From positions 348,054 to 406,857 of the forward strand of contig DCTT01000026.1 in assembly GCA_002329295.1 (NCBI GenBank): 58,804 nt of DNA. Direction: 5' to 3'. The notes under the pieces were generated by a model, which ran no database searches, had not been told where the DNA came from, and saw only the letters and a list, made by a program, of their open reading frames with translations. The translations under genes and the position numbers were made by a program. Positions 12,906 through 34,182 of this stretch are shown here, in pieces (within the stretch, counting starts at the first letter, position 1; every line of letters starts with the position of its first letter). The DNA comes from Eubacteriaceae bacterium UBA1433. Lineage in GTDB: Bacteria; Bacillota; Clostridia; Eubacteriales; UBA1433.

Positions 12906-15900
12906 CAGCATCCCCCGCCGTACCCACAATAATGTTTTCGCCCATATTAATAAAACATAAGATACCTATTGTATTCCTTGTTTTTGTAATCGCTTCATAG
13001 GCCTTTTGATAATATCGCAATTGTGTCCTATAAGGCGCAATGCGCTCTTTTCTGTTTTCCGGTCGGTAATAATCAGTCTTATAATCTATGATATAGTCTA
13101 CACCTTGATAGGTTGCCACACAATCTATAATTCCTTGAATATATACATGCTCCCCGCTGTCCAAGCACATATTTTCATAAACTTCTTTTGCGTTTGCCCG
13201 ATAATAAAATTCCACTTCACGCTGTACACGCTCTGCCTGCAAGATAATTTGCCCCGCCTCGGAAGTCCAAAAATCCGCCAACTTATCTGTTTCGATTGCC
13301 TGCGCTTCCTGCTTGCTGATAATCTTCTCTGCAATCAAGCGATTCAGATATTCTTTGATGATTTCCTCATACCGGTTTGTTTTTTTCAGCATTTCCAAAT
13401 CAATGGTTTCCATAAGGTAATGGACGATCAAGCCTCTGCGCATCGGCAAAATATTGTTTTCTTCCTCAGCAGCAAAGTCCGCATATTTTTTTACAAAGGG
13501 CTGTCCGGCTTGTTTCAACTCGCTTACGGTTATTTTTTGCGCAATTTGCGTACTTGCCTCATAAGGATAACGCCAAAGCAGACGGCGTATTTCTTCCTTT
13601 GTTAAAGGTTGCGCGTCCTGGTTTAAATAATCCAAAACGGCTTTTCTTTCCATTTGCATCTCGTCTTTTTCCTGCAACAACAAATCACTGTGCAACGTAA
13701 CGTCAAAAACGCTTTTGTCTTTGGACACACTTTCTTGCATGGCCGCACTCATAATCCAATCCAAAAACGTAACGGTCCTTTGCACTTGATAGGTACTGAT
13801 CTTTTCTGACCATGACGCCATTTTTTTCTCTGCCGTTTTCTCAGACAGCAATCCGGTGATAATCAGCCGCTCTTCCGCACGGCTCAGCGCCACATACAGC
13901 AACCGCATTTGCTCCGAGGTTATGTCATTTTTCACTGCTTCCTTTGCGGCAATCTTTGCAAGGCTGTCGCATTTATATCCGTTTTCCACATCACAGTAGG
14001 TAATGCCCACGCCCATGTGCTTATGCAAAATAAGCTCTTTTCGCAAGTCCGCTCTGTTGAATCGTTTCGATGTCCTGCCCAAAATCACCACAGGAAACTC
14101 CAGCCCTTTGCTTTTGTGAATGCTCATCATGCGAACCGCATTTTGCCTTTGGATAAAAAGCGACGGCGCGCCGATATCCGTTTGCGCAGCCTTGACCTTT
14201 TCCACAAATCGAATAAAACCGAACACTCCCTGCATGGTTCCTTTTTCATATTCTCGGGCAATGTGCAACAGAGAATGCAAGTTTTCGCTCCGCAGCCTGC
14301 CCCCCTCCATCATGGCAACATAGTCGCACAAACCGGTTTCGTCATAAATATCCAATAACAAATCATAGATCCCGATATGTTTGCTTTTTTCTCTGCAGGA
14401 TTCAATAAATCGATAGAGAGCATGTAATTTTTCGCTAAGCGCATCGGTAAAACATCGTCGATATTCATCAATGGCCTCATAAAAGAAATGTTGTTTTGTA
14501 TGTTGCCGAATTTGCAACAATTCCGCCAAGTCGAAACCAAACAACAGCGAACGCATAACGGCCAACAGCGCAATATCTTGCTGGTCGTTGTCTATGACCG
14601 TCAAAAGATTCATCACCAAATCCACTTCCATATTGTCAAAGTAGCCCTTGCCCGCATCAAAAAACAACGGGATTTTTTGTTGCCTGAATATTTCGACATA
14701 ACCTGCCGCATCCGTCGAAGGACTGGCTAACAGCACCACAATATCCCCGTAGCGAATTTTGCGCATTTTTTGTTCTTTTTTGTCAAAAATTTCTTGTTGC
14801 AGTAAGCTTTTAATGGTGGTCGCTGTCCCTAAAGCCTCCTTTTGTGCACTTTCCAACTCTGCAAAAACATCTTCGTCCTCCGCAGCATCTTGCTTATCGC
14901 TGCAAAAAAGGTGAATCTCCGTTTTAACGGTTGCCTCCAAATCTTTTCTGGCAAAAACCAACTTGGCATGTTCGTCATAATCCACGCCACCCGTCTGTTT
15001 TCGCATAATGGGCTCAAAAACAGCATTGATCCCATTGATGACACTTTGCGCACTTCTGAAATTTTGGTTGAGATGAATCACTTCGCCGTTTTCTTCTTTT
15101 TGTTGAAACCGCTCATATTTTTCACGGAAGATATCCGCGTCCGCCAGTCGAAAACGATAGATGCTCTGTTTGATATCGCCTACCATAAACAAGTTGCTTC
15201 CCGTACTCAGGTTTTTCAATATTGCTTCCTGCAACATGCTGATATCTTGATATTCATCAATAAAGATGTACTCATACTGGTCTTTGATTTCCCGGGAAAT
15301 GTTTTCGTCTTTTAAAATTTGAAGACACAACTGCTCGCAATCGTGAAAAGTAATCGCTTTTTTCTTCGCTTTGCGCTTTTTATATTCCTCTGCAAAGCTT
15401 TGAGTCATTTCTTTGAGGCATTTTAGCACATTGAGAAGTTTTGCATTTTCCTTCTCTGCCTTTTGAACGCTGTAAGTTCCCCAAAGGCACAGTTCTTTTT
15501 TTAGAATATCTCTGGCGGCTTCACGATATCTTTTGACTTGCTCCTTTGTTTGTATATCGGTTTCTTTCGGAAAGCGCAGCGTTGTGGTGCCACGGTTCAC
15601 TGCCAGATCATATTCTCTTTGAAAGCTGTCCCATCCTCTTTGCAGCGCATCGGCAAGGTCCTGAAATTGTCGTTGTTCGCCAAGAAGAATCTCTTGCTTC
15701 TCTTTCGGCAAAACCGGTTCGGCCCATTCCACCGCTCTGCTTTGCAAATGCAACGCTTCGTCGAGCAATTGCTCAACCGTCACTGTCAAAAATTGCACCC
15801 ATTTGCTTTTTGTCAAATCCTTTGCTTTGTCATAATACTCTATTTCGTCCTGCAGCCAATCCAATCCTTCCGGCCTGCTCATGGCGTAATCATATATTTC

Positions 15901-16494
15901 TAAAATCATATCGCCCATCGCCAAGGGTTTTCTGAAAGGCGTATACATTTCATACACTGCTAAAAACGCTTCGTCTTCCCGAGACAAAAAGAATTCCAAC
16001 ACTTCTCGCATCGTCTCTTCGCGCAACAACACTTCTTCGGCTCCTTGCAAAATGGTAAAATCCGGCGCAATATCAAGAATATGAAAGTAGCTGCGAATCA
16101 TTTTCATGCAAAAGGCGTGCAGCGTACTGATATCCGCACCGTTGAGATACATCAACTGTTCTTTGAGATGCGGCGAATTGATTTGCTCGGTGTAGATTAA
16201 TTCGCTGATTGCGCTTTGTATTCTTTTTTGCATCTGTGCCGCCGCCGCATTGGTAAAGGTCGCCAACAACATCTTGCGAATATCTTTTTCGTGCAGCAAA
16301 AGAAGCGCCACGATACGCTGCACCAGCACAAAGGTTTTGCCGCTGCCCGCGGCAGCCGAAACCAATATATCTCTTTGTGCCTTCGGAGCAACTTCTACGG
16401 CATATCGTTGTTTTGAAGTCATTTTGCTCCAGGTTTTTTGCAGCGCTTCTTCTGTTTGTCTCTGCGTTTTTTCTTTTGCGTTAGATGGATTCAT
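12898..16494 (-). CDS. addA: AddA helicase/nuclease subunit
   Basis: AAAGSGKT Walker A, IDEYQD, VGDIKQSIYRFR, SIHKSKGLEF, C-terminal GIID..IDYKT nuclease; 1198 aa. Confidence 0.97.
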   Translation of the reverse strand: MNPSNAKEKTQRQTEEALQKTWSKMTSKQRYAVEVAPKAQRDILVSAAAGSGKTFVLVQRIVALLLLHEKDIRKMLLATFTNAAAAQMQKRIQSAISELIYTEQINSPHLKEQLMYLNGADISTLHAFCMKMIRSYFHILDIAPDFTILQGAEEVLLREETMREVLEFFLSREDEAFLAVYEMYTPFRKPLAMGDMILEIYDYAMSRPEGLDWLQDEIEYYDKAKDLTKSKWVQFLTVTVEQLLDEALHLQSRAVEWAEPVLPKEKQEILLGEQRQFQDLADALQRGWDSFQREYDLAVNRGTTTLRFPKETDIQTKEQVKRYREAARDILKKELCLWGTYSVQKAEKENAKLLNVLKCLKEMTQSFAEEYKKRKAKKKAITFHDCEQLCLQILKDENISREIKDQYEYIFIDEYQDISMLQEAILKNLSTGSNLFMVGDIKQSIYRFRLADADIFREKYERFQQKEENGEVIHLNQNFRSAQSVINGINAVFEPIMRKQTGGVDYDEHAKLVFARKDLEATVKTEIHLFCSDKQDAAEDEDVFAELESAQKEALGTATTIKSLLQQEIFDKKEQKMRKIRYGDIVVLLASPSTDAAGYVEIFRQQKIPLFFDAGKGYFDNMEVDLVMNLLTVIDNDQQDIALLAVMRSLLFGFDLAELLQIRQHTKQHFFYEAIDEYRRCFTDALSEKLHALYRFIESCREKSKHIGIYDLLLDIYDETGLCDYVAMMEGGRLRSENLHSLLHIAREYEKGTMQGVFGFIRFVEKVKAAQTDIGAPSLFIQRQNAVRMMSIHKSKGLEFPVVILGRTSKRFNRADLRKELILHKHMGVGITYCDVENGYKCDSLAKIAAKEAVKNDITSEQMRLLYVALSRAEERLIITGLLSEKTAEKKMASWSEKISTYQVQRTVTFLDWIMSAAMQESVSKDKSVFDVTLHSDLLLQEKDEMQMERKAVLDYLNQDAQPLTKEEIRRLLWRYPYEASTQIAQKITVSELKQAGQPFVKKYADFAAEEENNILPMRRGLIVHYLMETIDLEMLKKTNRYEEIIKEYLNRLIAEKIISKQEAQAIETDKLADFWTSEAGQIILQAERVQREVEFYYRANAKEVYENMCLDSGEHVYIQGIIDCVATYQGVDYIIDYKTDYYRPENRKERIAPYRTQLRYYQKAYEAITKTRNTIGILCFINMGENIIVGTAGDADE
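15287..15300. promoter_or_regulatory. Noc-binding site (NBS), perfect 14-bp palindrome inside addA
   Basis: ATTTCCCGGGAAAT is identical to the B. subtilis NBS consensus. Confidence 0.75.
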
Positions 16495-19400
16495 CCGTTT
16501 TCATCCCTTCTTCTATTTTTTCAAGAAAGGTCTTTTTGTTCAGTTTCTCTACACGTCTATATCGCACGTTCTCACAAACATCATTGAACTTGCAAATCCC
16601 TCGATAGAGGCAGCGTTCACAAGAATGCTTATAGGGCCTCGGCGCCACAATCCCCGATAAAATGTCTTTGGCAAACCCTTTGGAACATTCGGCGCTGTAG
16701 CGTAACATTTTGTCCATTTCTTCCTTGCTCATTATGTTGTCAGTATTTTGAAGTCTTTCTTCTTTTTTTGAATACGTTACTTTTGTCAAATTTTTAAAGT
16801 CTTGATCCATTGCAGCTACAATTTCCACATCATCCACCGCCAATCCCACCAGGCGCATTTCTTCATCTCGCGCTTGTTGCAATGCTTCAAGGTGTGCGGG
16901 AAAAGCAATGTCCTGGTCAAAGGAGACGATCGGATGATGCAATTTATAATAAAACATTCCGGCGGGCAAATGATTGTCATCCGCCGCAAGACAAGCTTGC
17001 ATATAAAAGTTCAGCTGCAAATCCAGGCCGTGATATATATGCGAATAATTGATGTCTTTGTTTCCTGTCTTGTAATCAATCACCTTGCAATAGATTTTTC
17101 CCTGTCGTTCATACACATCCAAACGGTCAATTTTTCCCTCTACGCTCACATCGTAGCCCTCCACATTTCCCAAATATACGCCCGGCAACGGTTGGTTGTT
17201 GCCAAAGCCGATTTCGCTTCCCGCAATATCGAATTTTCCTTCGCTTAGATGTACAATCATTTTTTCCAGGGATTTTTGCGCCGCTCGCTTGAGTCCTTTT
17301 AACATTGCCGCATTCAAGGCATCACTGCCGAACACGTCGTTTTTAAAATCTCTTTCTTCCTGGGCGATAATTTCTTCCACAAGACGGTTCACTTCATCAG
17401 AACTCATGGCGCGTACGTCCACCTCGTTGGTCAAAATGTGTTCCGTAAAAATTTGTCCGATATGATGCATAAAAATCCCGATGTCCAGTGAACTGATTTC
17501 CCATATTTCACGTTTTTGGGGTTTGAGGATATAACGCACAAAGTATTCAAAAGGACAACCGGCATAGGTTTGCATATTGCTTGCGCTGATTTCAAAGGGG
17601 TCGGAAAAAACCTGACGCATTTGCTCGGGCGTTATATTTTCTATTTTGTTCTCCGCTGCAACAGCCCGACTCAGACGTCGGATTTTTTCAGCATATTGCT
17701 TCTCTACTTTGTACCAAGCAAAGAGACTCCTTGTTTTTTCTTCTGGTTGTGTTTTGTTTTGGATGCAATTGCTTATTTTTTGCACCATGCGATGATATGT
17801 GCCTTGTTGGTTGGAAACAGCCATTGCATCTATATCATCGTCTTGTATGTCAATATCGAACATTTTCGCTACGCTTTCTGCCACAAAACTCATTTCAAGA
17901 CCTTCTCCCGCCTCATTGATGAGCGGTGCGCTGATGATTAAGCGATGCAAAGGTTTTGACAATGTATTATAGATATAAAAGCGCTCTTTTACGCTATGAT
18001 TTTCCGCTTCTCCCAGCAAATCCAGTCCCGCTTTTGTCAATTCTCTTTTTTCACGCTGCGTAAAAATCCCTTCCGACGTCAACCCTTTTGGCATAACTCC
18101 CTCATTGGCGCCCACCACAATGGCTACGGCAATATCTGACGTTCGGCTGCGGGCAAAGTCGCCCAATATCACGCAATCGGATGCCACCGGCAAAATCCCT
18201 GCCTGCTGACTCAAAACAGACTGTTTCAAAACCTGGTGAAATTCTTCTATCTGCGCCGGCTGCCCTTTTAAAAAGAAGGCAATAAACGTCAAACTCTCTT
18301 GCACAATGCCGATAATTTGCTCCTCGATGGAACTGTGTACATACAACGCCTGCTCTTCGCAGAACTTTTTATTTTGCGCAGTTTTTTCAGCCACGCAAGG
18401 CTCGGCAAGAATTTTAAAGAAAACCTCCGCAAAATCATCATAGGTTTTGGCCTGCTTCAGTTGCTCCTGCCACACAAGAACTTCTTGTGCAAACACCTCT
18501 CTGTCCCGGTTGATTTCCGCCAGAGCTTGTTCGTCCTCTCGGCTCGTTTTCCAAAATTCTTCAAAGTAGGCTCGCCCTTTGATGCCGTAGCGCAACACGT
18601 AATTTTCCAATCGATTGATTTGTTCATCGCTCAAGGCCGTGTAGCCCGATTTTAAATAGGCAAATACGTCCGTATAAGCAAACGCATCTCGCTCAAACAT
18701 CTGCAATAACGCAAAGAGCATGCGCACCAAAGCATTTTGCTCAATATCATATTTTTCATCAATAAACAGTGGAATGTTGTATGCTGCAAAAACCTCCTTC
18801 GCCAAGGGTCGATAGGCATCCAAATCATTGGTAAACAAGGCAATGTCCCGATATCGCAGCTCTTTCATCTGTACAAATTCCAATACTTTTTCCGCCGCCA
18901 AAATCATTTCACGGCGCAATGTACTCGTTTTGATAATTTGAGGAACTTCTTCTTTATCAAATTTTTTGCTTTGTACCGTTTGATATTGAAACAGGTTTTG
19001 TTCCAAGTATTCCATGGCTTGCGTGCTGTTTTTCTTGTCTTGAAGATGGATGGTTTGCGTTTGCACGTTGTGCTTTTGCGCACAAGCCAACAAATCCTCT
19101 CGCAGTTTTTTTGTCAGCGCAAAGACTTCTCGGCCGTTTTCCTCTTCATAGGTGATGGCCACTGTCATGGCACTGGCTTGTGTCATGATTTTTTCAAGCA
19201 AATGTACCCGTTGTTTGTCCAATGTATGAAATCCGTCCACATACACACAGGTCGATAAAAAGCTCTGCTGCTTTTGCACTTCTGCCGCCGCTTGCTCCAT
19301 CATATCTTCGACATCACAGTATCCTTGATGGATATATTCTTCATAGGCCTGATAAATACGTGCAATTTCCGCTATTTTTTGCTGCAATCCCTCTCCCTTT

Positions 19401-19819
19401 GCCAAATCGTGCAACTGCGAGGGCTTCATTCGGTTTTTTTTCATTTCTAAGATGCATTGATACATCATTTCACAAAATCCGTCATGCCTCCAACTTCTAG
19501 CAAAGACTTTCAGTGAGGGCGCTACGTCCATTAAAATTTTTTTCAAAATTACCAATGCCGCTTTTTTGCTCAAAGGTTGCATTGCCATCGTGCCGATTTT
19601 GCTGAGCAATTGATAGGCAAGGCGAGAAAAACTTACCACATGCACCCCGATTACGCCGTCGCTTTGCAAATAGTCAATCAACTCTTTTTCTGCCTGGAAG
19701 CTGTATTGTTCGGGCACAATCAAATAAATCTCACGGTTTTTTTTGATGTCTTCCGCGATTTTTGCATAGATTGCTCTGCTTTTTCCGCTTCCTTGCCGAC
19801 CGGTAATCAGTGTGAACAT
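16481..19819 (-). CDS. addB: AddB nuclease subunit with Fe-S staple
   Basis: GRQGSGKS, VYVDGF, CPF..., GKIDR..IDYKTG, C-terminal CxxCx5C; overlaps the addA start. Confidence 0.96.
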   Translation of the reverse strand: MFTLITGRQGSGKSRAIYAKIAEDIKKNREIYLIVPEQYSFQAEKELIDYLQSDGVIGVHVVSFSRLAYQLLSKIGTMAMQPLSKKAALVILKKILMDVAPSLKVFARSWRHDGFCEMMYQCILEMKKNRMKPSQLHDLAKGEGLQQKIAEIARIYQAYEEYIHQGYCDVEDMMEQAAAEVQKQQSFLSTCVYVDGFHTLDKQRVHLLEKIMTQASAMTVAITYEEENGREVFALTKKLREDLLACAQKHNVQTQTIHLQDKKNSTQAMEYLEQNLFQYQTVQSKKFDKEEVPQIIKTSTLRREMILAAEKVLEFVQMKELRYRDIALFTNDLDAYRPLAKEVFAAYNIPLFIDEKYDIEQNALVRMLFALLQMFERDAFAYTDVFAYLKSGYTALSDEQINRLENYVLRYGIKGRAYFEEFWKTSREDEQALAEINRDREVFAQEVLVWQEQLKQAKTYDDFAEVFFKILAEPCVAEKTAQNKKFCEEQALYVHSSIEEQIIGIVQESLTFIAFFLKGQPAQIEEFHQVLKQSVLSQQAGILPVASDCVILGDFARSRTSDIAVAIVVGANEGVMPKGLTSEGIFTQREKRELTKAGLDLLGEAENHSVKERFYIYNTLSKPLHRLIISAPLINEAGEGLEMSFVAESVAKMFDIDIQDDDIDAMAVSNQQGTYHRMVQKISNCIQNKTQPEEKTRSLFAWYKVEKQYAEKIRRLSRAVAAENKIENITPEQMRQVFSDPFEISASNMQTYAGCPFEYFVRYILKPQKREIWEISSLDIGIFMHHIGQIFTEHILTNEVDVRAMSSDEVNRLVEEIIAQEERDFKNDVFGSDALNAAMLKGLKRAAQKSLEKMIVHLSEGKFDIAGSEIGFGNNQPLPGVYLGNVEGYDVSVEGKIDRLDVYERQGKIYCKVIDYKTGNKDINYSHIYHGLDLQLNFYMQACLAADDNHLPAGMFYYKLHHPIVSFDQDIAFPAHLEALQQARDEEMRLVGLAVDDVEIVAAMDQDFKNLTKVTYSKKEERLQNTDNIMSKEEMDKMLRYSAECSKGFAKDILSGIVAPRPYKHSCERCLYRGICKFNDVCENVRYRRVEKLNKKTFLEKIEEGMKTDESI

Positions 19820-20002
19820 GCTTCTCCTCGTTCTTTTTTTATCTTTATCATACCATAGATATTCCTTTCCTCACCATCGATTTACAGTCAATTGCCACTT
19901 TTTCTTTTTTGTGTTTTACAAAACAAAACGCATTGTTGTTTTGCACTGCTTTTTTTGTTACTATGAGAATATCTTTTACAAAAATCAAAACGGAGATTTT
20001 TG

Positions 20003-22066: not shown

Positions 22067-22074
22067 AAGCCATT

Positions 22075-22117
22075 AAAAAAGCACCTTTCGGTCTATACCG
22101 ATCAGGTGCGTTTCTTT
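22075..22117. terminator. Bidirectional intrinsic terminator between U32 gene and LCP gene
   Basis: A-tract, then gcacct-ttcggt/accgat-caggtgc imperfect stem, then T-rich tail. Confidence 0.55.
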
Positions 22118-23159: not shown

Positions 23160-23258
23160 ATCGCTACCCTTGTAGTTATTTTGTTTAATGGTATATTATT
23201 TTTTTGTTGCCCTGCCAAGCGTTCTATCAATTTGTTGCTTGCTGTCGAGGCAACGTTT

Positions 23259-23813
23259 TTAGCGAAGAGATCTCTTTGCGGCAATTAAAATATCTTTACG
23301 ATAAGGCTCAATATCGGCATCTAAACGCAAACCCAGTTTCGGCATTCGTACAAAGTCAACCATTTCCGCATTCAAATCCTGCACATAAAATTCCAACACA
23401 TCTTGAAAAGACCGATATTGATTATTATACTGTCCCGCTCCTGGTGCGAGTACAACCATCTTTTTTGTTTGCGGGTTTTGCATTTTGATCTTTTTGCTGT
23501 AATGTAAAGCAATAGAACGATCAATGACTGTTTTTAACACGGACGTCACCGTATTATAATACACCGGCGCACCCAGCACAATAATATTGGCCGGAATATA
23601 GGCATTGACCAACTTTTCCATATCATCCTTTTGAATGCAATTGCCTTGCGACTGACGACAAAACATGCAGCCTCTGCAGTAAGCAATCTCCAGGTCAATC
23701 AAATCTATGCGCTCTACTTGCGCCGCGCCGATTCCTTCCAAAAAAATATCCAGCGCTCGTTTGGTACAGCCGTTTTTTCGATGGCTGCTGTTGATAGCTA
23801 ATACGTTCGTCAT
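23259..23813 (-). CDS. Iron-sulfur flavoprotein / NADPH-dependent FMN reductase family
   Basis: INSSHRKNGCT FMN loop; CRGCMFC..C cluster motif; GAPVY. Confidence 0.85.
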   Translation of the reverse strand: MTNVLAINSSHRKNGCTKRALDIFLEGIGAAQVERIDLIDLEIAYCRGCMFCRQSQGNCIQKDDMEKLVNAYIPANIIVLGAPVYYNTVTSVLKTVIDRSIALHYSKKIKMQNPQTKKMVVLAPGAGQYNNQYRSFQDVLEFYVQDLNAEMVDFVRMPKLGLRLDADIEPYRKDILIAAKRSLR

Positions 23814-23831
23814 TTTTCTCACCTGCTTTTT

Positions 23832-24665: not shown

Positions 24666-24799
24666 GCAATGTTCTCTCCTGTCCGTTTTGTTGTACTCTA
24701 TTTTTATTCGCGATAGATTTTTCCTTGTCTATCGCTTGTTCTTTTTTCCATTATCTATTATATTATACTGTATATTCATGAAAACAACGAGGTTTTTTT

Positions 24800-25477
24800 A
24801 TGTCTGTGCATTTTCAAAACGATTGGAACCACTTATTGGCAGATGAATTTAAAAAAGAATACTATTTAAAGCTGCGTGCTTTTTTGGCGCAGGAATATCG
24901 AACCCACACCGTCTATCCGGATATGTATGATATTTTTAACGCTTTGCATCTTACTTCTTACAGCGACACCAAAGTCGTCATCATCGGCCAAGACCCTTAT
25001 CATCAGCCCAATCAAGCCCACGGACTATGTTTTTCCGTAAAAGAAGGGGTAGAAATTCCTCCTTCTTTGCAAAACATCTATAAAGAACTGCAAAACGACC
25101 TGGGCTGCTATATCCCCAATAACGGCACGTTGATTCCGTGGGCGAAACAGGGTGTGCTGTTGCTCAATGCCGTGCTTACGGTCCGGGCTCACCAAGCGGC
25201 TTCTCACCGCATGATGGGATGGGAAAGTTTTACAGATAATGTAATTTTTTTGTTGAGCCGTTCCCCGAATCCAATTGTATTTTTGCTTTGGGGCGCCTTT
25301 GCCCAATCCAAGGCCTCCTTTATTACCGCACCTCATCACCTCGTGCTCAAAGCGCCGCATCCCAGTCCGCTTTCAGCCTATCGCGGCTTTTTTGGCTGCA
25401 AACACTTTTCAAAAGCCAATGCCTTTTTGTCGCAAGCAGGCCTCAAACCCATTGACTGGCAAATCCCCAATCTTTAA
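24800..25477 (+). CDS. ung: Uracil-DNA glycosylase, family 1
   Basis: [35 protein letters not shown]. Confidence 0.98.
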
Positions 25478-26844
25478 AACGTCCCTTTTACAAGGTTTTT
25501 AATCCACTTTTTTGTCTTATAACGCGAAATCAAAAAAATCAGTTTTATTCCATGCTCGGCAAAAGTCAAAGCCATCACCCAATGAATCGGCAAGCGCAAA
25601 ACCGCTGCCGCAAAAAATGCTACCGGAACAGCATATCCCCAAATCGTAATCAATTCCAGAACCATACAAAATTTTGTGTCGCCGCCCGCTCTCAAAATCC
25701 CGATTAACAGCAGATAACTGAGCATAGAAAGCGGAATATACGCTCCCAACACAAAAAGAATGTTGTAAATGGATTGTATTGTTGCCACTTCCAGATCAAA
25801 GAATCCCACCACGGGTTTCCTCAACAAAATCAATAATGAACCCATGACGATTCCGAAAATCAACATCACCATGATATATTTTTGCGCATATTTTTCGGTA
25901 AGCGCATAATTTTCTCTACCCATTTCATTGCCCAACATCACTGCACAAGCATTACCTATTCCGAAAAAGGCTGCTTCAAAAACCCCTAAAACCGTCATAG
26001 ACACTTGCACGGCCGCCACAGCACTCGCCCCTAACAGCCCATAGGCAACATAAGTAATGGTCATTCCCAAAGACCATATCATTTCGTTCATCATGACCGG
26101 CAAGGCTACTTTCAATTTTTGTCGCAGCATCTTTTTTGTCCAGCAAAACAAATCCTTCGCTTGAAAAGCAAGGATATTGTTTTTTCTCTTTGTCAAATAA
26201 AGCAGAAAACAAATACATTCAACGACCCGCGCCACCAACGTGGCTCGTGCCGCTCCCTCCACGCCCATGGGTTCAAAGCCCAGGTGACCGAAAATCCAAA
26301 TATAGTTCAATAGCGTGTTGATTAAAACACAGTTTGCATTGATTAAAAGCGGCATTTTTACATTGCCGACAGATCGCATGGTAAAGGAAACCGCAAAAGA
26401 AACCGCCGTAAAAAAATAACTGTACGCCACAATGCGAAGATAACGACTCCCCAATTCAATGACCGCTGTATCTTTGATAAAAAATGAAATCAATTTCCCA
26501 GGAAATGTGCTTGCCGCCACCAAAAAAACGAACGCCACCCCCGCACCTAAGACCAACTCCATTCCCAACATGTTTTTCACATTCTTGAGATCTTTGTTGC
26601 CCCAATATTGCGCAGTAAATACGCTCATACCGCTATAAATGCCAAAGATGATGATTGCGAAGAAAAAATAAACACGATTGCCGATTCCAACCGCTGCCAC
26701 CGCCGTTTCGCCATAAGAGCCGATCATAACGGTATCGATCATATTGAGCGAAAGCGAAATCAAATTCTGCAGCGCAATCGGTATAGCCAACGCCAACATC
26801 ACGGAATAAAATGTTTTTTTGTCATAATACAAAGAAGATTGCAT
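25474..26844 (-). CDS. MATE family efflux transporter
   Basis: About 12 TM segments; [33 protein letters not shown] repeats. Confidence 0.93.
26493..26506. promoter_or_regulatory. NBS-like site (1 mismatch) inside the MATE gene
   Basis: ATTTCCCAGGAAAT versus consensus ATTTCCCGGGAAAT. Confidence 0.6.
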
Positions 26845-26918
26845 ACTTTGTTCCTAACGGGATAACATACGACCTTTCTGCCGAGGCGGTTGTCTCATTT
26901 TAAATGTTCTCTTTGATA

Positions 26919-27392
26919 TTAAGATGTTCTCTTTTTTGCACCCTTATGATATTTTTCGTTATTCATAATCGTAAAGGCTCGATAAATCTGTTCCAATAAC
27001 ACTACGCGAAAAAGCTGATGGGGAAATGTCATTTCCGAAAACGATATTCGCAGGTCGGCTCTTTTCTTAACATCCGCACTCAATCCGTTGGAACCGCCAA
27101 CAACAAAAACAATTTCCTTGCCGTATTCTTCTATTATCTTTTGCAGCAAACCGGCCCATGCCGCACTGTCCAAACTTTGCCCATCCACATCACAGGCGAT
27201 GACATAGGCTCGAGAAGATATTTTTTTTAAAAGCAGCTTTCCTTCTTCCACAGGATCATCCGTAACCGACTCTTTACTTTCCACTATCGTCAGTTCACAA
27301 TACCTGCGTAATCGCTTTTCATATTCCGCGCAAGCCTGTGACCAATATTTTTCTTTTAATTTGCCTACACAAAGAAGGGTAATTTTTGCCAT
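26919..27392 (-). CDS. rlmH: 23S rRNA m3-pseudouridine-1915 methyltransferase
   Basis: ITLLCVGKLKE, FVVGGSNG, SFSEMTFPHQLFRVVLLEQIYRA..YHK. Confidence 0.96.
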   Translation of the reverse strand: MAKITLLCVGKLKEKYWSQACAEYEKRLRRYCELTIVESKESVTDDPVEEGKLLLKKISSRAYVIACDVDGQSLDSAAWAGLLQKIIEEYGKEIVFVVGGSNGLSADVKKRADLRISFSEMTFPHQLFRVVLLEQIYRAFTIMNNEKYHKGAKKRTS

Positions 27393-27466
27393 ACCGCACT
27401 TGACCTTTCCAAAAATCCCTTTCCATTTAAGCACTGTTATCCGTCTTTGTCAAACAGCTTTTCTCG

Positions 27467-27482
27467 TGTTTCACGTGAAACA
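27467..27482. promoter_or_regulatory. parS centromere site 1
   Basis: Perfect palindrome TGTTTCACGTGAAACA. Confidence 0.95.
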
Positions 27483-27492
27483 TTTTGTTTCC

Positions 27493-27508
27493 TGTTTCAC
27501 GTGAAACA
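27493..27508. promoter_or_regulatory. parS centromere site 2
   Basis: Perfect palindrome TGTTTCACGTGAAACA, 10 bp from site 1. Confidence 0.95.
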
Positions 27509-27540
27509 TCAAAAATATAGTTTCTTTTTCTAACCGATAG

Positions 27541-27549
27541 TGATAAAAT
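27541..27549 (+). promoter_or_regulatory. Extended -10 promoter candidate for parA
   Basis: TGaTAAAAT about 30 nt upstream of the parA start; -35 is weak. Confidence 0.4.
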
Positions 27550-27578
27550 AGACACATCGCAAAATAGCGGAGGAAATG

Positions 27579-28355
27579 ATGGCAAAGATTTATTGCGTTT
27601 TTAACCAAAAAGGCGGCGTCGGAAAAACCGCCACTACTACCAATCTGGGAGCGGGCATTGCAAAATTAGGCAAAAAAGTACTCGTTGTAGATGCCGATTC
27701 ACAAGGCAATCTTACTACAGGACTCAATATAAAGGCTGACAGAGGCGTCCACACGCTCTACGATGTGTTGTGCGGCCAGTTGGACGTTCAAAGAGCGGTG
27801 TTTCCCACCGCTTATACCAATTTAATGCTGATTCCCGCCAACGCTCGGTTGGCAGGGGCCGAGATAGAGTTGGTCGGTGTCCCTCAGCGTGAACTGGTAT
27901 TGAAAAAAAACCTGTCTTCTCTGCGCGATTCTTTTGATTATATTTTTATCGATTGCCCGCCTTCTTTGGGGTTGATTTCCATCAACTCTTTGGCTGCTTC
28001 TGACGGCATTATCGTACCTATTCAATGCGAGTATTACGCCTTGGAAGGTGTAAGCAACTTAATTAACACCATCAATCTTGTAAAGCGTGGGTTAAACCCT
28101 TCTTTGGATATTGTCGGGATTGTTTTAACCATGTATGACAGTCGCACAAACCTGTCATTACAAGTTGCCGCCGAAGTAAAGCGCTATTTTCGTGAAAAAG
28201 TGTTCAATACCATCATTCCCCGCAATGTAAAAATTGCCGAATCTCCCAGCTTTGGCAAACCGGTCATTTACTACGATGAATCTTCTTCCGGCGCCAAGGC
28301 CTACATGTCTTTGGCACAAGAATTGTTGGAAGGGGAACATGCTTATGAAACCTAA
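27579..28355 (+). CDS. parA: ParA/Soj ATPase
   Basis: NQKGGVGKTATT deviant Walker A, DADSQGN, DCPPSLG, QCEYYALEG, IPRNVKIAESPS. Confidence 0.97.
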   Translation: MAKIYCVFNQKGGVGKTATTTNLGAGIAKLGKKVLVVDADSQGNLTTGLNIKADRGVHTLYDVLCGQLDVQRAVFPTAYTNLMLIPANARLAGAEIELVGVPQRELVLKKNLSSLRDSFDYIFIDCPPSLGLISINSLAASDGIIVPIQCEYYALEGVSNLINTINLVKRGLNPSLDIVGIVLTMYDSRTNLSLQVAAEVKRYFREKVFNTIIPRNVKIAESPSFGKPVIYYDESSSGAKAYMSLAQELLEGEHAYET

Positions 28356-29208
28356 TTCTGTTTTAGGCAAAGGCTTGGATGCGCTGATTCCTTATTATGC
28401 CCACGAAACCGAAATGGATGAGGTCAGCGCCGTCCAAGAGTTGCCCATAGAAAAAATAAAACCCAATCCGAACCAACCCCGAAAAATATTTACAGAAGAC
28501 ACTTTGGCGGAATTAAGCCAATCAATTCAAGCTCACGGTATTCTTCAGCCTTTGATTGTCGTGGATCGCGACGACGAAACCTATATGATTGTTGCAGGAG
28601 AGCGTCGTTGGCGTGCCGCTTCCATGGCAAACCTCAAAACCGTACCTGTGATTGTTCGTTCTTACAGCGACGAAGAAGTGCTGGCTATTTCTTTGGTGGA
28701 AAATTTGCAACGCGAAAATTTACATGATTTAGAAAAAGCCTCTACGTACCAAATGTTAATTGATCAATTTCAACTCACCCACGAATCCCTGGCTGCAACA
28801 CTGGGCATCAGCCGGGCAGCAGTAACCAACACGCTGCGCCTTTTAAGTCTATCACAGGAAGAACAAGACGCATTGCTCAAAGAACAAATCACCGCCGGTC
28901 ACGCCCGCGCATTGCTTTCATTGCCTTTGGGCCCATTGCGTACCAAAGCGCTCAACACTATGATGAAAAAACGCCTTTCTGTGCGAGATGCAGAAACTTT
29001 GGTGCGCAATTTAAGCAAACCCGCTGCCGTTGCTCCTTTAACCAAAGAAAGCAACCATGCGGCGCTGGAGACAGAGTTGTCCGCCCTTCTGGGTCGCAAG
29101 GTGCTCATTCACCCCCGTGGCAAACGCGGCAACATTCTTTTAGAATATTATGACGCAAACGATAGAGAACACTTGATTGACGCATTAAAAAAACTGGCTG
29201 AAGGCTAA
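28345..29208 (+). CDS. parB: ParB/Spo0J CTP-dependent clamp
   Basis: LGKGLDAL, PNQPRK, IVAGERRWRA, ENLQRE; HTH specificity residues R/T/S/G (parS type). Start ATG 28345 overlaps the parA end. Confidence 0.97.
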   Translation: MKPNSVLGKGLDALIPYYAHETEMDEVSAVQELPIEKIKPNPNQPRKIFTEDTLAELSQSIQAHGILQPLIVVDRDDETYMIVAGERRWRAASMANLKTVPVIVRSYSDEEVLAISLVENLQRENLHDLEKASTYQMLIDQFQLTHESLAATLGISRAAVTNTLRLLSLSQEEQDALLKEQITAGHARALLSLPLGPLRTKALNTMMKKRLSVRDAETLVRNLSKPAAVAPLTKESNHAALETELSALLGRKVLIHPRGKRGNILLEYYDANDREHLIDALKKLAEG

Positions 29209-29232
29209 CTTCTTCATCAAAGGAGATCTTTT

Positions 29233-30330
29233 ATGACGAAAAAAAACAAAACTGCTTCCATGTTATCACTCGCTTTAATCGGAAATATTTTTTATTATAT
29301 ATTGTGCGCCATATTGTTCCAGCTTTCGCCTGCATCTAAGGCGGTCTACATCTTGTTTTTTATATGTTCCATTCTATTATGGTTTGGCATTGGCGCATAT
29401 TATGGAACATATGCTCGAAAAACCAATATTGGCAAACAATTCATTTTTGCACTGGTGACCATGGTTCCGATTCTTTTATTTTTCATAACTTATGTTGTGC
29501 TCACCCGTTTATCGAGCTCTGTAACAGGCAATCCCTGGCTTTTATTTTATACTTTCGGTGCACCGCTCTTGTTTTGGTTGAAACCTGCAACATTTTTGCT
29601 GCATTCTTTTAATATTTCTTTCCCGCTTTTTGCTGCAGGCTACATTCTTTTGTTATTGTTGACCACTTTTGCCGGCACGGCTCTTTTTGCCTTGAAGCAA
29701 CACAAAGAAACGTTTTTGCCTATTGAATCGGAAGAAATACCGGAAAAAGATACCAGTGTCCCCGCTGACGATTCCCTGCAAAATATCCCGGAAGTTGCAG
29801 AGCCTTTCGAAAACGAAGTACCGCAAAAAACCGCGATGCTAAGCCAAGAAGATACGAAAGCTGCAGAAGAAGAGCGTCAGGATATTTTGCGTTTTATCAA
29901 AGATACAAACAATGCAGAAGATATGACGGGCGCTGAAAACGTCATTGAGCAGCAATATGAAGAAAGCCAATACCGCATTGACGGGCAAGGAGACACATAC
30001 AAAACCATGCCTATGCCCACCATTGACGAACTGTATGCCGAAGTCCTCAGTCAAAAAGATTTGGAACCCGAAGACGAAACCGCCCTCTACATGCAGGAAA
30101 TCATCACCGATATGCATTTTGTGGCAGAATACGAATTAACGGATGAATCTGTCACAGAACAGGAAACGGCAGAAAGCATTGTCGATGACACGGCTTCCTC
30201 ATCACAGGCAACGACCCTCGTTGAAGAAGAATCCACCGACCGAACCAACACAAATGGTGCAGACAACGCAAAAGCCCATTCTGAAATCTCTTTGCCTGAA
30301 CAAAAAGAAAACGACGCTGACAACTCCTGA
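29233..30330 (+). CDS. Hypothetical membrane protein: 4-5 TM N-terminus and long acidic low-complexity C-terminus
   Basis: AAGGAG RBS; 365-aa ORF; hydrophobic first ~150 aa, D/E-rich remainder; no family recognised. Confidence 0.8.
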   Translation: MTKKNKTASMLSLALIGNIFYYILCAILFQLSPASKAVYILFFICSILLWFGIGAYYGTYARKTNIGKQFIFALVTMVPILLFFITYVVLTRLSSSVTGNPWLLFYTFGAPLLFWLKPATFLLHSFNISFPLFAAGYILLLLLTTFAGTALFALKQHKETFLPIESEEIPEKDTSVPADDSLQNIPEVAEPFENEVPQKTAMLSQEDTKAAEEERQDILRFIKDTNNAEDMTGAENVIEQQYEESQYRIDGQGDTYKTMPMPTIDELYAEVLSQKDLEPEDETALYMQEIITDMHFVAEYELTDESVTEQETAESIVDDTASSSQATTLVEEESTDRTNTNGADNAKAHSEISLPEQKENDADNS

Positions 30331-30392
30331 AAAAAGTCGCCTTTTCCCAGATTTTTACATAAAAAGAAAGATCCTTGAGGAGGTGTAAATAC

Positions 30393-31019
30393 ATGAACGC
30401 AATTGATATCGCTATTTTGGTAGTAGTTCTTTTGTTTGGACTGATGGGATTTCGTCACGGTCTTGTAAAAAGCGTCTTGTCTTTTGCAGGCGCCATCATT
30501 GCCTTTATCGTTGCAAAAATATTTTATGTTTCTTTTGCTTTGACCTTAACAACAAAGACCAATTGGGACACGAAAATTTCTGCTTGGATCTATGAACGAC
30601 TGCTGAACACTTTTCCGTCAGGCAATGTCACACTCAGTGAAACATCCAGCTCTTTTCAGTGGTTTTTTTCCAAACTTTTCAACGAAAGTGCTTCACACAG
30701 CACGATACAAACTCTTTCAAACAGCGTTTCTCATTTTGTAATGAACGTTCTCGCCTTTGTCATCATTTTTTTAGCTATGCTTCTTATCATTGCTCTACTG
30801 GGCTTTGTGCTTGACCGCGTGATGAAATTGCCCGGCCTGAGCTTTTTGAACAAGTTAGGCGGTTTTGGCATCGGCCTTGCAAAAGGTGTGTTGATTTGTG
30901 CCGTTTTTATCAGTTTGATTACCTTTTTCTCTCTCTTTTCCAAAAATGCCGCCTTCTCTGAGATGTTTGCCAATTCTGTTTTTGCAAAATATCTCTATAT
31001 CGGCCGTTGGTTAATGTAG
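30393..31019 (+). CDS. CvpA (colicin V production) family membrane protein
   Basis: IDIAIL..G..GF.HGLVKSVLSF and LNKLGGFGIGLAKG signature; GAGGAGGTG RBS. Confidence 0.85.
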   Translation: MNAIDIAILVVVLLFGLMGFRHGLVKSVLSFAGAIIAFIVAKIFYVSFALTLTTKTNWDTKISAWIYERLLNTFPSGNVTLSETSSSFQWFFSKLFNESASHSTIQTLSNSVSHFVMNVLAFVIIFLAMLLIIALLGFVLDRVMKLPGLSFLNKLGGFGIGLAKGVLICAVFISLITFFSLFSKNAAFSEMFANSVFAKYLYIGRWLM

Positions 31020-31028
31020 GAGTGCGCC

Positions 31029-31265
31029 ATGGCCATCGAAACTTTTGGACTGGGCGATATTGTACAAACAAAAAAACCGCACCCTTGCGGGTGCGATCAA
31101 TGGAAAATTTTGCGCATTGGCGTTGATGTAAAACTACAATGCCTACGCTGTGAACGGGTGGTTGTGTTGGAGCGAGTCATCTTTAAGAAAAAAGCAAAAA
31201 AAATCGTACAGCGTGCCACTGTATCAGAAGAAGATTCACTTTCTGCTTACTGGTATGATACATAG
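31029..31265 (+). CDS. DUF951 family protein
   Basis: GDIVQTKKPHPCG..W.ILRIGVDVKLQC..C.R motif; usual neighbour of rpsF. Confidence 0.9.
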   Translation: MAIETFGLGDIVQTKKPHPCGCDQWKILRIGVDVKLQCLRCERVVVLERVIFKKKAKKIVQRATVSEEDSLSAYWYDT

Positions 31266-31278
31266 AAATGAAAACACC

Positions 31279-32253
31279 ATGAAAGAACTGCCACAAACAT
31301 TTAATTGCAAACACTTTAAACAGGAAATCAATCGCATTGCACTTATTCTCATTTGTTATGAAGCTGTTTTTTTGATATTTGCCATTGTTTTCACAATTTT
31401 GTTGGGAATATGGCAGGGACTATCGATTATACCAGAGGCAAGCTCCCTGGATTCTTTTAATGCAGACAACCTCGCTGCAAACGGATGGCCTTATCTGCTC
31501 AGCACCCTTATCGCTACAGGAACGGCCATTGCATTCCGCAAACAACATGTCCTTCGCAAAGATCTTTCCTGTCAACAAAAACCGATGCGCTTCTATGCTT
31601 TTTCGTTTTTTCTGGCTTTTATGATGGCGATACAATTATTCAATCAATTTTTTTCTGTTTCTATCGAATCTTTTTTAAATGTTTTCGGCTACAGCATGGC
31701 GGAAAGTATGGAAGCCTTAACAGAAATAGATGACACGGTTTCCATGTTTTTTTATGTGGTTTTCATTGGACCTGTAGCCGAAGAAATTATGTTTCGCGGC
31801 GTGGTGCTGCACTCACTGAAAAAATACGGCAAAATTTTTGCCGTCGTCATCTCCTCCTTGGCTTTTGGACTTATGCACGGCAATTTATATCAGCTTTTAT
31901 TTGCTTTTGGCATAGGCTTAATGCTGGCCTATATAACTCTTGAATATTCATTCAAGTGGGCTGTTGTACTGCATATTTTGAACAACTTGATTTTTGGCGA
32001 ATTTATACTTTTTCTTACCAAGCGCTTTTCTGAAACCGTCATCGCCCGCTTTCAGTTTTTTTTCTATACAATCTTTTTTATTTTCGTCCTCATTGTTCTT
32101 TTTCAGAAGTTTCCCGCTATTCGAGCCTACTTTCGACAACATCGCACTGCAAAAGGACAATATGCACTCACTTTCAAATCGATTCTTCCACTCGTTTATT
32201 TTGCTGTCAATCTGCTTTTGATTCGACTTAGCATTACAAAACTTGTTCTGTAA
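31279..32253 (+). CDS. CPBP (Abi/CAAX-like) intramembrane glutamic endopeptidase
   Basis: GPVAEEIMFRG, FGLMHGN, HILNN motifs; multi-TM. Confidence 0.9.
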   Translation: MKELPQTFNCKHFKQEINRIALILICYEAVFLIFAIVFTILLGIWQGLSIIPEASSLDSFNADNLAANGWPYLLSTLIATGTAIAFRKQHVLRKDLSCQQKPMRFYAFSFFLAFMMAIQLFNQFFSVSIESFLNVFGYSMAESMEALTEIDDTVSMFFYVVFIGPVAEEIMFRGVVLHSLKKYGKIFAVVISSLAFGLMHGNLYQLLFAFGIGLMLAYITLEYSFKWAVVLHILNNLIFGEFILFLTKRFSETVIARFQFFFYTIFFIFVLIVLFQKFPAIRAYFRQHRTAKGQYALTFKSILPLVYFAVNLLLIRLSITKLVL

Positions 32254-32386
32254 AGAAATATTTTTGATTTCACAATACCGCTATTGACAAAACAACTCAT
32301 TCGCTCTGCAGCAACTCTGCTCTTTTGAATAAAATATCAAAACCGTTTCATTTTCTTTATTGTTCATTTTATTTTTTAATATTTTA

Positions 32387-32415
32387 TTGATTTTTTCTTT
32401 CTGATTCAGTATAAT
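32387..32415 (+). promoter_or_regulatory. sigma-A promoter of rpsF-ssb-rpsR
   Basis: TTGATT-N17-TATAAT. Confidence 0.8.
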
Positions 32416-32426
32416 TAATTTTCGTA

Positions 32427-32470
32427 TCCTTGCTCTGAGCAAAACAGGGCCATTAGTCCATAAGGAGGTG
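32427..32470 (+). promoter_or_regulatory. S6:S18 ribosomal-protein autoregulatory leader
   Basis: UCCUU pairs with the AAGGA RBS; inner GCUCUG/CAGGGC hairpin; CCA in the 3' internal loop, matching the known Firmicute rpsF leader layout. Confidence 0.75.
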
Positions 32471-32475
32471 AACAA

Positions 32476-32766
32476 ATGAAAGCCTATGAAACAATCTTTG
32501 TTTTGACCCCGGATTCCGAAGAAGAACGCATTCAGGAATGTGTCGCGCGTGTCAGCGAAATCATTACCAGCGGTGGTGGTGAAGTGACAGAAGTGAACGA
32601 ATGGGGAAAAAGGCGTCTAGCCTATGAAGTAGCCAAAAAATATAACGAGGGCTACTATGTGCTGATTACATTTACAGGCAATGCAGCAATTTTGCAGGAA
32701 CTGACTCGTGTATACGGCATTACGGAAGACATTTTCAGACATATTGTTGTCGAAAAAGTGTCATAG
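32476..32766 (+). CDS. rpsF: 30S ribosomal protein S6
   Basis: MKAYETIFVL..EWGKRRLAYE..GYY. Confidence 0.98.
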   Translation: MKAYETIFVLTPDSEEERIQECVARVSEIITSGGGEVTEVNEWGKRRLAYEVAKKYNEGYYVLITFTGNAAILQELTRVYGITEDIFRHIVVEKVS

Positions 32767-32781
32767 AAAAGAGGTCTTACT

Positions 32782-33216
32782 ATGTTAAATAAAGTAGTGC
32801 TCATCGGAAGATTAACCCGCGATCCGGAAATTCGCTATACCGCCGCCAATACACCCGTGGCAAGCTTTACTTTGGCCGTGAACCGAAACTTTAAAAATAA
32901 AGAAGGCGGCTATGATGCTGACTTCATCAATATCACAGCTTGGCGCAGATTGGCTGAACTGATTTCCAATACTTTACAAAAGGGGAGCTTAATCGCTGTC
33001 ACAGGAAGAATCCAAACCAGTTCTTATGAAGCAAAAGACGGCACAAGGAGATATACCACTGACGTGGTTGCCGACGAAATTGCCTTCTTAGAGAAAAAAG
33101 GAACTTCTTCTGCCGATCGCAGCAGCGAACCGGCAATGTATGAAAAACAATCCGACGATTTTGGCATTCCCGTTGACGGGTTCAGTCCGATCGATGATGA
33201 CGACTTGCCATTCTAA
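32782..33216 (+). CDS. ssb: Single-stranded DNA-binding protein
   Basis: MLNKVVLIGRLTRDPE..DFINI..GRIQT; acidic tail DDDDLPF. Confidence 0.98.
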   Translation: MLNKVVLIGRLTRDPEIRYTAANTPVASFTLAVNRNFKNKEGGYDADFINITAWRRLAELISNTLQKGSLIAVTGRIQTSSYEAKDGTRRYTTDVVADEIAFLEKKGTSSADRSSEPAMYEKQSDDFGIPVDGFSPIDDDDLPF

Positions 33217-33248
33217 CTGATTGATATTCAAGAAAGGAGTGAGAAAAG

Positions 33249-33476
33249 ATGGGAAAACCACCTTTTAGACGAAGAAAAAAAGTTTGTGAATTTTGCGAAG
33301 CCAAAATTGAACATATCGACTATAAACAAGTTGACGTATTAAAAAGACACCTCACAGAAAGGGGAAAGATTCTTCCTCGCCGTGTAAAAGGCACCTGTGC
33401 AAAACATCAACGACAATTGACATCCGCCATTAAACTTGCACGCAACATTGCTCTTTTACCGTTTTCAAGCGACTAA
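33249..33476 (+). CDS. rpsR: 30S ribosomal protein S18 (zinc-binding type)
   Basis: [31 protein letters not shown]. Confidence 0.98.
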
Positions 33477-33486
33477 ATTATGAAAG

Positions 33487-33527
33487 AAAAAGCTGCGGAC
33501 ATTTTTGTTCGCGGCTTTTTTTCTTTT
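33487..33527. terminator. Bidirectional intrinsic terminator after rpsR
   Basis: aaaaagctgcggac-attttt-gttcgcggcttttttt. Confidence 0.85.
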
Positions 33528-34083
33528 ATCGGAGAACTTCGTGCGCCAATACAGTATACATACGCATATCGACCATAAGTTCCGTCTTTACGCAACATCC
33601 CTTGACGTTTGTTGCCTTCATAACGTATGCCGCATTTTTCCATCACTATGCCGGAGGCCTTATTGCCTACATCGTGCGCGCCCTCAATGCGATGATACCC
33701 CATATGATGACACAATTATTTCAACACAACGCCAAAGGCCTCTGTCATTATGCCCTAACCCCAACAAGCACTGCCGGTTGCAAATCCGACCTCTGCCGTC
33801 AAAAATTTCCCCTGAGCAAATCTCACCCCAACAGAACCGATAACTTCATTGGTTTTTTCAGCACAATTGCCCAATAATAGGTATCCTCTTTGTCATAAGC
33901 ACTGATTCAGCTTTACAGAAGCTGTCGACGTCCTTCTACATTCTTATGCGGGTGCCGGGCGAAAACCCGCGCGACTGCCGCATCCTTTGCCCAATGTTGA
34001 AACATCTGTAACGCATCCTTCATGACGAACCTGCGCAGTATTAACCGGTTGGCCTCGAGTTGTTTTGTGCCTAAATGTTGCAT
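33526..34083 (-). pseudogene. RimJ/RimL-type GNAT acetyltransferase pseudogene
   Basis: GGAGG RBS and ATG at 34083. Reconstructed MQHLGTKQLEANRLILRRF...YWAIV...IGSVG...WG*GIMTEA...N.ASG.VMEKCG..YEG. Four in-frame stops and two frameshifts; 558 nt in total. Confidence 0.9.
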
Positions 34084-34145
34084 CTGTCTGCCTCCAAAAG
34101 AACGGGAGGCACTATACCATATTCTCCGTCACTTGCGCCGTTTTT

Positions 34146-34182
34146 ATTTCCTGGGAAATGTTTCCCGTCTTTCCCGGGAAAA
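34146..34182. promoter_or_regulatory. Tandem NBS-like palindromes upstream of the rplI promoter
   Basis: ATTTCCTGGGAAAT (34146-34159, 13/14) and CTTTCCCGGGAAAA (34169-34182, 12/14; perfect 12-bp core), 23-bp pitch. Confidence 0.65.

Follow-up and report, generated by a model that had tools for sequence, protein, structure and literature searches.

Noc is the textbook nucleoid-occlusion factor of Gram-positive bacteria, and the Noc system has three parts: Noc-binding sites (NBS), a cytidine triphosphate (CTP) clamp, and a membrane helix. B. subtilis has about 70 NBS. In S. aureus, all but one of 41 Noc loci lie within ±700 kb of the origin, and binding spreads over 8–10 kb (PMC5540599). An amphipathic membrane-targeting helix (α1), α2, and a loop have been described for Noc, and a 16-bp NBS core has been given (PMC8429893). 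At the specificity positions of ParB-family readers (173, 179, 184, and 201 in Caulobacter ParB numbering, used throughout), Gln173 reads adenine 1 of the site and Arg201 reads cytosine 6, these two residues switch specificity, and one lysine, at either 179 or 184, is enough for NBS specificity (PMC7383237). Here we analyze a stretch of 58,804 nucleotides (C4:348054–406857; hereafter the window) from the small, gut-type Clostridia genome of Eubacteriaceae bacterium UBA1433 (1.6 Mb, 27 contigs, 42% G+C), which carries four NBS palindromes on one side of oriC and encodes a Noc-type paralog of ParB.

We judge it probable that these palindromes are NBS and nucleation sites for the paralog encoded at 57403–58185. 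As we discuss below, we take them to be real, selected sites because of enrichment over shuffled DNA, positional conservation, Noc-type residues in the predicted reader, and class-wide co-occurrence of motif and paralog. The core of the original prediction, that the Noc-like protein has real, selected loading sites, is thus retained with that degree of confidence, but its further claim that two of these sites are embedded in coding DNA fared less well, as only the addA coding site is conserved.

Enrichment, position, and conservation of the palindromes

A scan of the window that allowed two mismatches to ATTTCCCGGGAAAT yielded exactly four copies (Table 1). The original prediction had placed all four correctly, with their mismatches and with host genes that gave AddA and MATE family matches, and had recognized the sequence as the B. 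subtilis NBS consensus, which agrees with the published consensus (PMC3020112, citing Wu et al., 2009). Adenine 1 and cytosine 6 were kept in both half-sites of the copies at 26493 and 34146. In the 34169 copy, both mismatches fell at position 1/14, the bases read by the specificity glutamine, so that C6 was kept and A1 was not. An extra half-site, GTTTCCCG, at 34160–34167 separated the 34146 and 34169 copies, and this pair (34146–34182), which lies between a divergent GNAT-like open reading frame (ORF) and rplI-dnaB, ended 18 bp before a TTGATA-17-TATAAT promoter at 34201–34229.

First, the palindromes were more frequent than expected. With up to two mismatches, the four copies in the window compared with 0.47 in dinucleotide shuffles, 2 of 100 of which reached four. 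With up to one mismatch, there were three sites (Poisson P ~6e-6), whereas the expectation for the window was 0.011 for independent and identically distributed (i.i.d.) bases by hand calculation, reproducing the rough figure of about 0.01 in the original prediction, 0.026 for an order-3 Markov model (scaled from 0.713 genome-wide), and 0.033 for codon-preserving shuffles (scaled from 0.89 genome-wide). Over the whole genome, six such sites were present versus 0.71 expected from the order-3 Markov model. In the codon-preserving test, which the original prediction had proposed, each of 472 rounds permuted synonymous codons gene by gene and bases stretch by stretch in intergenic DNA, and the enrichment held genome-wide: the six sites compared with 0.89 expected and a shuffle maximum of five. 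For sites with up to one mismatch, coding DNA held four versus 0.88 expected (P = 0.011), intergenic DNA held two versus 0.011, and the region within 80 kb of oriC held five versus 0.14, with a shuffle maximum of two. Copies with exactly two mismatches were at background level in coding DNA (10 seen versus 10.2 expected), and three were seen versus 0.37 expected in intergenic DNA. The excess thus sat in the class with zero or one mismatch and in intergenic copies. Six sites versus 0.89 expected therefore do not form a chance set, although chance could account for about one of the four in coding DNA, and annotation should place no trust in coding matches with two mismatches.

Among all 16,384 14-bp palindromes, NBS ranked 8th by excess and parS 14th, with palindromes of the tRNA T-arm 2nd and 3rd. 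Two further 14-bp palindromes were over-represented genome-wide, TATATTATAATATA (12 copies versus 1.2 expected) and CCCGCATATGCGGG (4 versus 0.18). The context of CCCGGG was uninformative: 90 copies were present versus 148 expected for i.i.d. bases, and only four carried TT/AA flanks. One of the genomic NBS sites, at C4:476784, was found by reading the DNA to lie inside an ABC-transporter ATPase gene.

Second, the sites cluster around the origin. GC skew switches sign at 395–400 kb of C4, which corresponds to the divergence of dnaA (–) and rnpA (+) at about 49.5 kb of the window. The window sites lie 34, 23, and 15 kb from oriC (four sites, the last two together), and five of the six genomic sites with up to one mismatch fall between –34 and +79 kb of oriC. 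Within the genus, there are 3–6 sites per genome, mostly near oriC, the tightest origin clustering that we saw; in G002 and G003, three of four and three of three sites, respectively, were within 45 kb of noc. In the complete genomes of relatives with Noc, seven of seven sites (G014) and 10 of 11 (G016) were within 540–660 kb of noc, a distribution like that in Bacillus and S. aureus (PMC5540599). In two complete genomes that lack Noc (G015 and G019), NBS copies occurred all around the circle, including the terminus.

Third, positions are conserved in the closest relative, G001, in which Noc is 91% identical to that of the genome under study (G000) and the DNA around the sites is 73–83% identical. 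Four of the six genomic sites are matched by a site at the corresponding place in G001. The addA site is identical at 14 of 14 bases, although flanking third codon positions differ; in G005, addA encodes the same Ile-Ser-Arg-Glu-Ile peptide, but the serine codon is AGC, which does not fit an NBS. The C3:52836 site is identical in G001, mismatch included, and the C4:434382 site, which follows an MBL-fold gene, is kept as ATTGCCCGGGAAAC. The site upstream of rplI is kept at the same place with a different mismatch in each genome, as ATTTCCTGGGAAAT in G000, ATTTCCCGGGGAAT in G001, and ATTTCCCGGGACAT in G006, a member of a different genus. The rplI spacer has otherwise diverged, and apart from the promoter the palindrome is its sole conserved island. 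The 34169 copy is degenerate in G001 (TTATTTCGGGAAAG) and absent in G006, and the codons orthologous to the MATE site read ATG TTT CCG CAA ACG in G001. The 15287 and 34146 sites are the best supported, the 34169 copy is a possible auxiliary site, and the 26493 copy is the weakest member and doubtful; it may have arisen by chance or recently and may not belong to the functional set.

Across the relatives, three lineages have an NBS in addA, each at its own codon position. In addition to the 15287 site, genus g6 (G010:C12:275445 and G014:C1:1447120) has the same ATTCCCCGGGAAAT ~470–490 nt upstream of where its addA fragment aligns with the 15287 site, and G012 (G012:C90:14523) has an NBS ~290 nt upstream of the corresponding fragment. 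NBS could have been gained repeatedly in addA, a gene that stays near the origin.

Table 1. Coordinates of the palindromes, their host genes, and other features (numbering of the window).
Feature	Position	Strand	Remarks
NBS, exact, ATTTCCCGGGAAAT	15287..15300	.	inside addA, codons 399–403 (I-S-R-E-I); ~34 kb from oriC
NBS-like, 1 mismatch, ATTTCCCAGGAAAT	26493..26506	.	inside MATE transporter gene; 974 bp from parS pair
NBS, 1 mismatch, ATTTCCTGGGAAAT	34146..34159	.	intergenic; 42 bp upstream of rplI-dnaB –35 box
Possible auxiliary NBS, 2 mismatches, CTTTCCCGGGAAAA	34169..34182	.	intergenic; 23 bp after 34146 site
Noc-type ParB paralog, 260 aa, predicted reader	57403..58185	+	overlaps mnmG stop codon by 4 nt
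AddA host gene	12898–16494	–	TIGR02785, 891 bits
MATE transporter host gene	25474–26844	–	TIGR00797, 216 bits
Two perfect parS sites, TGTTTCACGTGAAACA	27467–27482, 27493–27508	.	26 bp apart; ~70–110 bp upstream of parA
parA	27576–28355	+	
parB	start probably 28339 or 28345, end 29208	+	R/T/S/G at specificity positions
oriC region	49242..49781		between dnaA (–) and rnpA (+); GC skew sign change

The Noc-type paralog and NBS across Clostridia

TIGR04285 (nucleoid_noc) is the best-scoring family for the 57403 protein, which scores 293.6 bits against it; the ParB of the same window scores only 228.4 bits. The Noc-type protein also scores 156.9 bits against TIGR00180, and Geobacillus Noc (7ng0 and 7nfu) tops its PDB matches, among which KorB also appears. 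The motifs QPR, GERRLRA, and ENVQRE of the CTP domain are present, and a ParB/Srx-type N-domain that binds CTP is predicted. Alignment to Geobacillus Noc and to the ParB of this genome gave the specificity residues Q/K/N/R, which match the Q/K/K/R of Noc at three of four positions. In combination with the published determinants (PMC7383237), these residues lead us to expect NBS specificity. Among 80 homolog loci, 69 motif matches were found: 63 QKKR, three QKRR, QKQR and QKTR in two relatives from the family, and one RTNG, which comes from a neighboring ParB-type gene. Gln173, Lys179, and Arg201 are invariant in the Noc-type homologs. In the family (G000, G006, and G005), N, Q, or T has replaced the second permissive lysine, that at position 184.

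The N-terminus of the paralog is short. Only nine residues precede the IPV..IIPN core, and residue 8 aligns with residue 28 of 7nfu, which therefore leaves no room for the α1 and α2 helices; there is no earlier ATG, GTG, or TTG in the frame of the 57403 ORF. The open frames of noc in the relatives are only 260–263 residues long, and the ORF and the CTP motifs are intact in all of them. All 26 homolog loci that we examined, two from Eubacteriaceae relatives and the rest mostly from Clostridium and allied Clostridia, are equally short, with 6–12 residues before the IPxxxIxPN core. The nearest named relatives are uncultured Eubacteriaceae represented by metagenome-assembled genomes, and Clostridium holds more distant homologs of the protein.

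Fourth, motif and paralog occur together. In 26 genomes of the order, 171 NBS with up to one mismatch were present, compared with 10 matches to the reversed control. We then sampled 100 genomes of the class, assigning them as Noc-positive or Noc-negative by hand from alignment coverage (a full-length Noc-type match): the 63 Noc-positive genomes had 1.84 NBS per Mb, and none had zero (reversed control, 0.14 per Mb), whereas the 37 Noc-negative genomes had 0.57 NBS per Mb, and 19 of them had zero (reversed control, 0.12 per Mb). The difference gave a Mann-Whitney P of 8e-10, a statistic that ignores kinship. Noc-negative genomes exceeded the reversed control ~5-fold, so this control is imperfect, and for that reason we used Markov and codon-aware expectations for G000 and the contrast between Noc-positive and Noc-negative genomes across the class. 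A literature search found no paper on NBS sites in Clostridia.

The same genome has a ParB/parS system. The 27467 and 27493 sites are the only perfect parS in the genome, with one two-mismatch copy on C24, and the four palindromes differ from parS TGTTNCACGTGAAACA at both specificity positions, as their predicted reader differs from ParB in having neither Arg173 nor Gly201. With its own ParB and two perfect parS beside NBS, the genome therefore runs both systems, and they are distinct.

Several neighboring genes deserve mention. The ORFs directly behind parB, 29233–30330 (365 residues) and 30375–31019 (214 residues), had no NCBIfam match. The parA-parB ... ssb-rpsR ... rplI-dnaB block (27576–38370, up to the gene at 36206–37486) lies left of oriC on the + strand; its transcription therefore runs toward the origin and, as judged by GC skew, meets the replication fork head-on. 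Two minus-strand ORFs divergent from rplI, 33913–34083 and 33473–33715, look like pieces of one GNAT/RimJ-type acetyltransferase gene (N-terminal peptide), which may be frameshifted, and a + strand ORF of 112 residues at 33505–33843 had no family match and is probably spurious.

Possible roles of the sites and alternative explanations

By homology with Bacillus and Geobacillus Noc, a dimer of the paralog would read each 14- to 16-bp palindrome through its helix-turn-helix, with Gln173 contacting adenine 1, Arg201 contacting cytosine 6, and Lys179 in a permissive role. Site binding would promote CTP binding at the GERRxR N-domain, the N-domains would then engage, and the protein would move off the site in the form of a sliding clamp and coat several kb in both directions. 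If spreading covered ~8–10 kb, as in S. aureus, the loci in the window would coat ~10–20, 21–31, and 29–39 kb, and this predicted coating would overlap the ParB zone around 27.5 kb. With few sites, mostly near oriC, the protein would mark the surroundings of the origin, where its zone and that of ParB/parS interleave, and would leave most of the chromosome unmarked. The absence of an N-terminal amphipathic helix suggests that the output is probably not DNA–membrane tethering of the Bacillus type. Loading of a CTP clamp at NBS in the manner of Noc and ParB is well supported by the sequence comparisons; assignment of the 57403 protein as a nucleoid-occlusion factor is not supported.

Several observations, in addition to the manual assignments and the uncorrected kinship in the class-wide sample, weigh against nucleation of the paralog at these sites. 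The score of the protein is under the TIGR04285 cut-off of 315 bits, position 184 is asparagine and not lysine, and the membrane-targeting region (amphipathic α1, α2, and the loop, ~26 residues) is absent. In the comparison of addA and MATE orthologs that the original prediction had suggested, only the addA half gave conservation, and then in the nearest relative alone: the addA site is absent in G002–G006, and none of the five genus relatives has a site at the codons orthologous to MATE site 26493. Site turnover is also fast, as G001 has two sites with no counterpart in G000. The Noc-less family f2 has 0–10 NBS-like copies per genome (1.6 per Mb), so that a share of the excess relative to the reversed control either does not depend on Noc or is a relic. 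Finally, the 27 contigs are unordered, and the positional result for this genome thus covers origin clustering only. In two f2 genomes, G011 (C4:1173863) and G019 (C1:4024384), an exact NBS lies 3.3 kb from rplI, near a ParB gene; these copies could be relics of a lost Noc or sites used by something else.

If the palindromes were functionless products of chance or composition, ATTTCC and GGAAAT would simply be common words, and peptides such as ISREI or FPGK would yield the palindrome incidentally. Markov and codon-aware expectations of 0.71–0.89, which are two to three times the i.i.d. figure, fit this idea, as do background numbers of two-mismatch coding copies, the unconserved MATE site, and Noc-less genomes that still rise above the reversed control. 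For single sites, most of all 26493, chance is plausible, but for the set we regard it as very improbable: six sites were reached by no shuffle, and five were seen near oriC versus 0.14 expected; four sites are positionally conserved, one of them intergenic and kept across genera with different mismatches; and the motif co-occurs with the paralog. Decay is hard to reconcile with the rplI site, which has been maintained through compensating changes around the consensus and therefore points to ongoing selection. Were the sites relics of an ancestral Bacillus-type Noc that the helix-less protein no longer uses, or had the K184N change altered specificity, the drift at position 184, the small number of sites and their high turnover, and the exact copies kept in Noc-less f2 would all be explained. 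Gln173, Lys179, and Arg201 are nevertheless invariant, one lysine suffices (PMC7383237), and the ORF and CTP motifs have stayed intact in all relatives, and we consider relics highly unlikely.

An operator function for the intergenic copies, in which another protein, or the Noc-like protein solely as a local repressor, would control the rplI-dnaB and post-MBL promoters and no spreading clamp would load, appears unlikely but has more in its favor. Each of the two intergenic sites with up to one mismatch is closely followed by a promoter-like element (for C4:434382, a TATATAAT box), the arrangement in a pair recalls that of parS at parA, and repressors among ParB-family CTP clamps exist, with KorB among the PDB matches. 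The conserved addA and C3 sites, however, lie within genes and not at promoters; clustering follows oriC and not a regulon, the motif tracks the Noc paralog class-wide, and the CTP-clamp motifs are intact. Operator and loading roles are also not mutually exclusive. At the same locus, the 34146–34182 pair could in principle form an RNA or DNA hairpin (a terminator or attenuator) and not be a protein site, as a terminator-like stem at 34161–34181 precedes a T run and the fold reaches –16.5 kcal/mol. The fold z-score is only –1.27, however, and 24 of 200 shuffled sequences match this folding; immediately upstream there is no end of a credible + strand gene, the neighbor being the divergent GNAT-like ORF on the – strand; and the stem is a by-product of repeated half-sites, of which G006 keeps a single palindrome only. 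We give a hairpin almost no weight and, based upon the z-score and the lack of an upstream + strand gene, rejected the terminator reading of 34146–34182.

If the palindromes are NBS read by the Noc-type paralog, their function could still differ from that in Bacillus. We raise tentatively, as a possibility that we would not favor at present, that helix-less Noc and its few NBS form a second, ParA-independent, CTP-driven marker of the origin domain, and do not act in nucleoid occlusion, in this genus and perhaps Clostridia-wide. If so, the complex could control replication initiation, a role that has been reported for Noc in S. aureus (PMC5540599), organize the origin in sporulation, or regulate rplI-dnaB locally, and membrane tethering would be a later addition in Bacillales onto an older NBS-reading clamp.

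Comparison with known Noc–NBS and ParB–parS systems

The system in this genome is a variant of the known Noc–NBS system and not a new one. Across Clostridia the NBS code has been maintained, with consensus and specificity residues the same, and it tracks a Noc paralog that has no membrane helix. With sites and clamp under selection and the helix absent, NBS reading is predicted to occur here without membrane tethering. NBS palindromes thus become predictable outside Bacillales, and the window provides concrete test substrates: one exact site, two with a single mismatch, and one in which both position-1 bases are mismatched. The role of helix-less Noc concerns a very large set of anaerobes, from the gut as well as the environment.

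As in the Noc–NBS systems of B. subtilis, G. thermoleovorans, and S. aureus, the 14-bp consensus here is identical, ATTTCCCGGGAAAT; the predicted reader is a ParB paralog with Gln173, Lys179, Arg201, GERRxR, and a Noc-type C-terminal domain; its gene is in the oriC cluster beside mnmG (gidA); the sites are origin-biased; and a separate ParB/parS system coexists. The ancestral Firmicutes ORI cluster has been inferred to contain noc (PMC8136486). Unlike those systems, the protein here has no 26-residue α1/α2 region, which makes it a natural equivalent of the NocN-delta-26 construct, and it has asparagine at 184 and a score below the NCBIfam cut-off. The genome has ~6 sites (3.7 per Mb) versus 41 loci in S. 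aureus, and they lie within roughly ±80 kb of oriC and not over the origin-proximal half to two-thirds of the chromosome. Gene order differs as well: rsmG is missing between mnmG and noc, the downstream neighbor of noc is ileS and not parAB, and parAB is 29 kb away.

The ParB–parS system offers the second comparison. In both cases a ParB-family protein, a CTP clamp by homology, is matched to a few 16-bp palindromes near oriC, and the number and placement of the sites here resemble a parS set more than the Bacillus NBS set; close pairs are also common to both, with parS 26 bp and NBS 23 bp apart. The sites differ from parS, however, in having A at position 1 and C at position 6 (G and A in parS), and the reader has Q/K/N/R and not R/T/A/G. 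The Noc-like protein also has no counterpart of the N-terminal LGKGLDALI-type peptide found in the ParB of this genome, which we take to be its ParA-contact motif.

The helix-less, uncharacterized Noc paralogs of Clostridium and other Clostridia, which carry QKKR, share the short N-terminus of the protein described here, and NBS-like palindromes were present in every Noc-positive genome sampled. The family here differs from those clostridial paralogs in having lost the second lysine, with N, Q, or T at position 184, and its genus shows the tightest clustering of sites at the origin.

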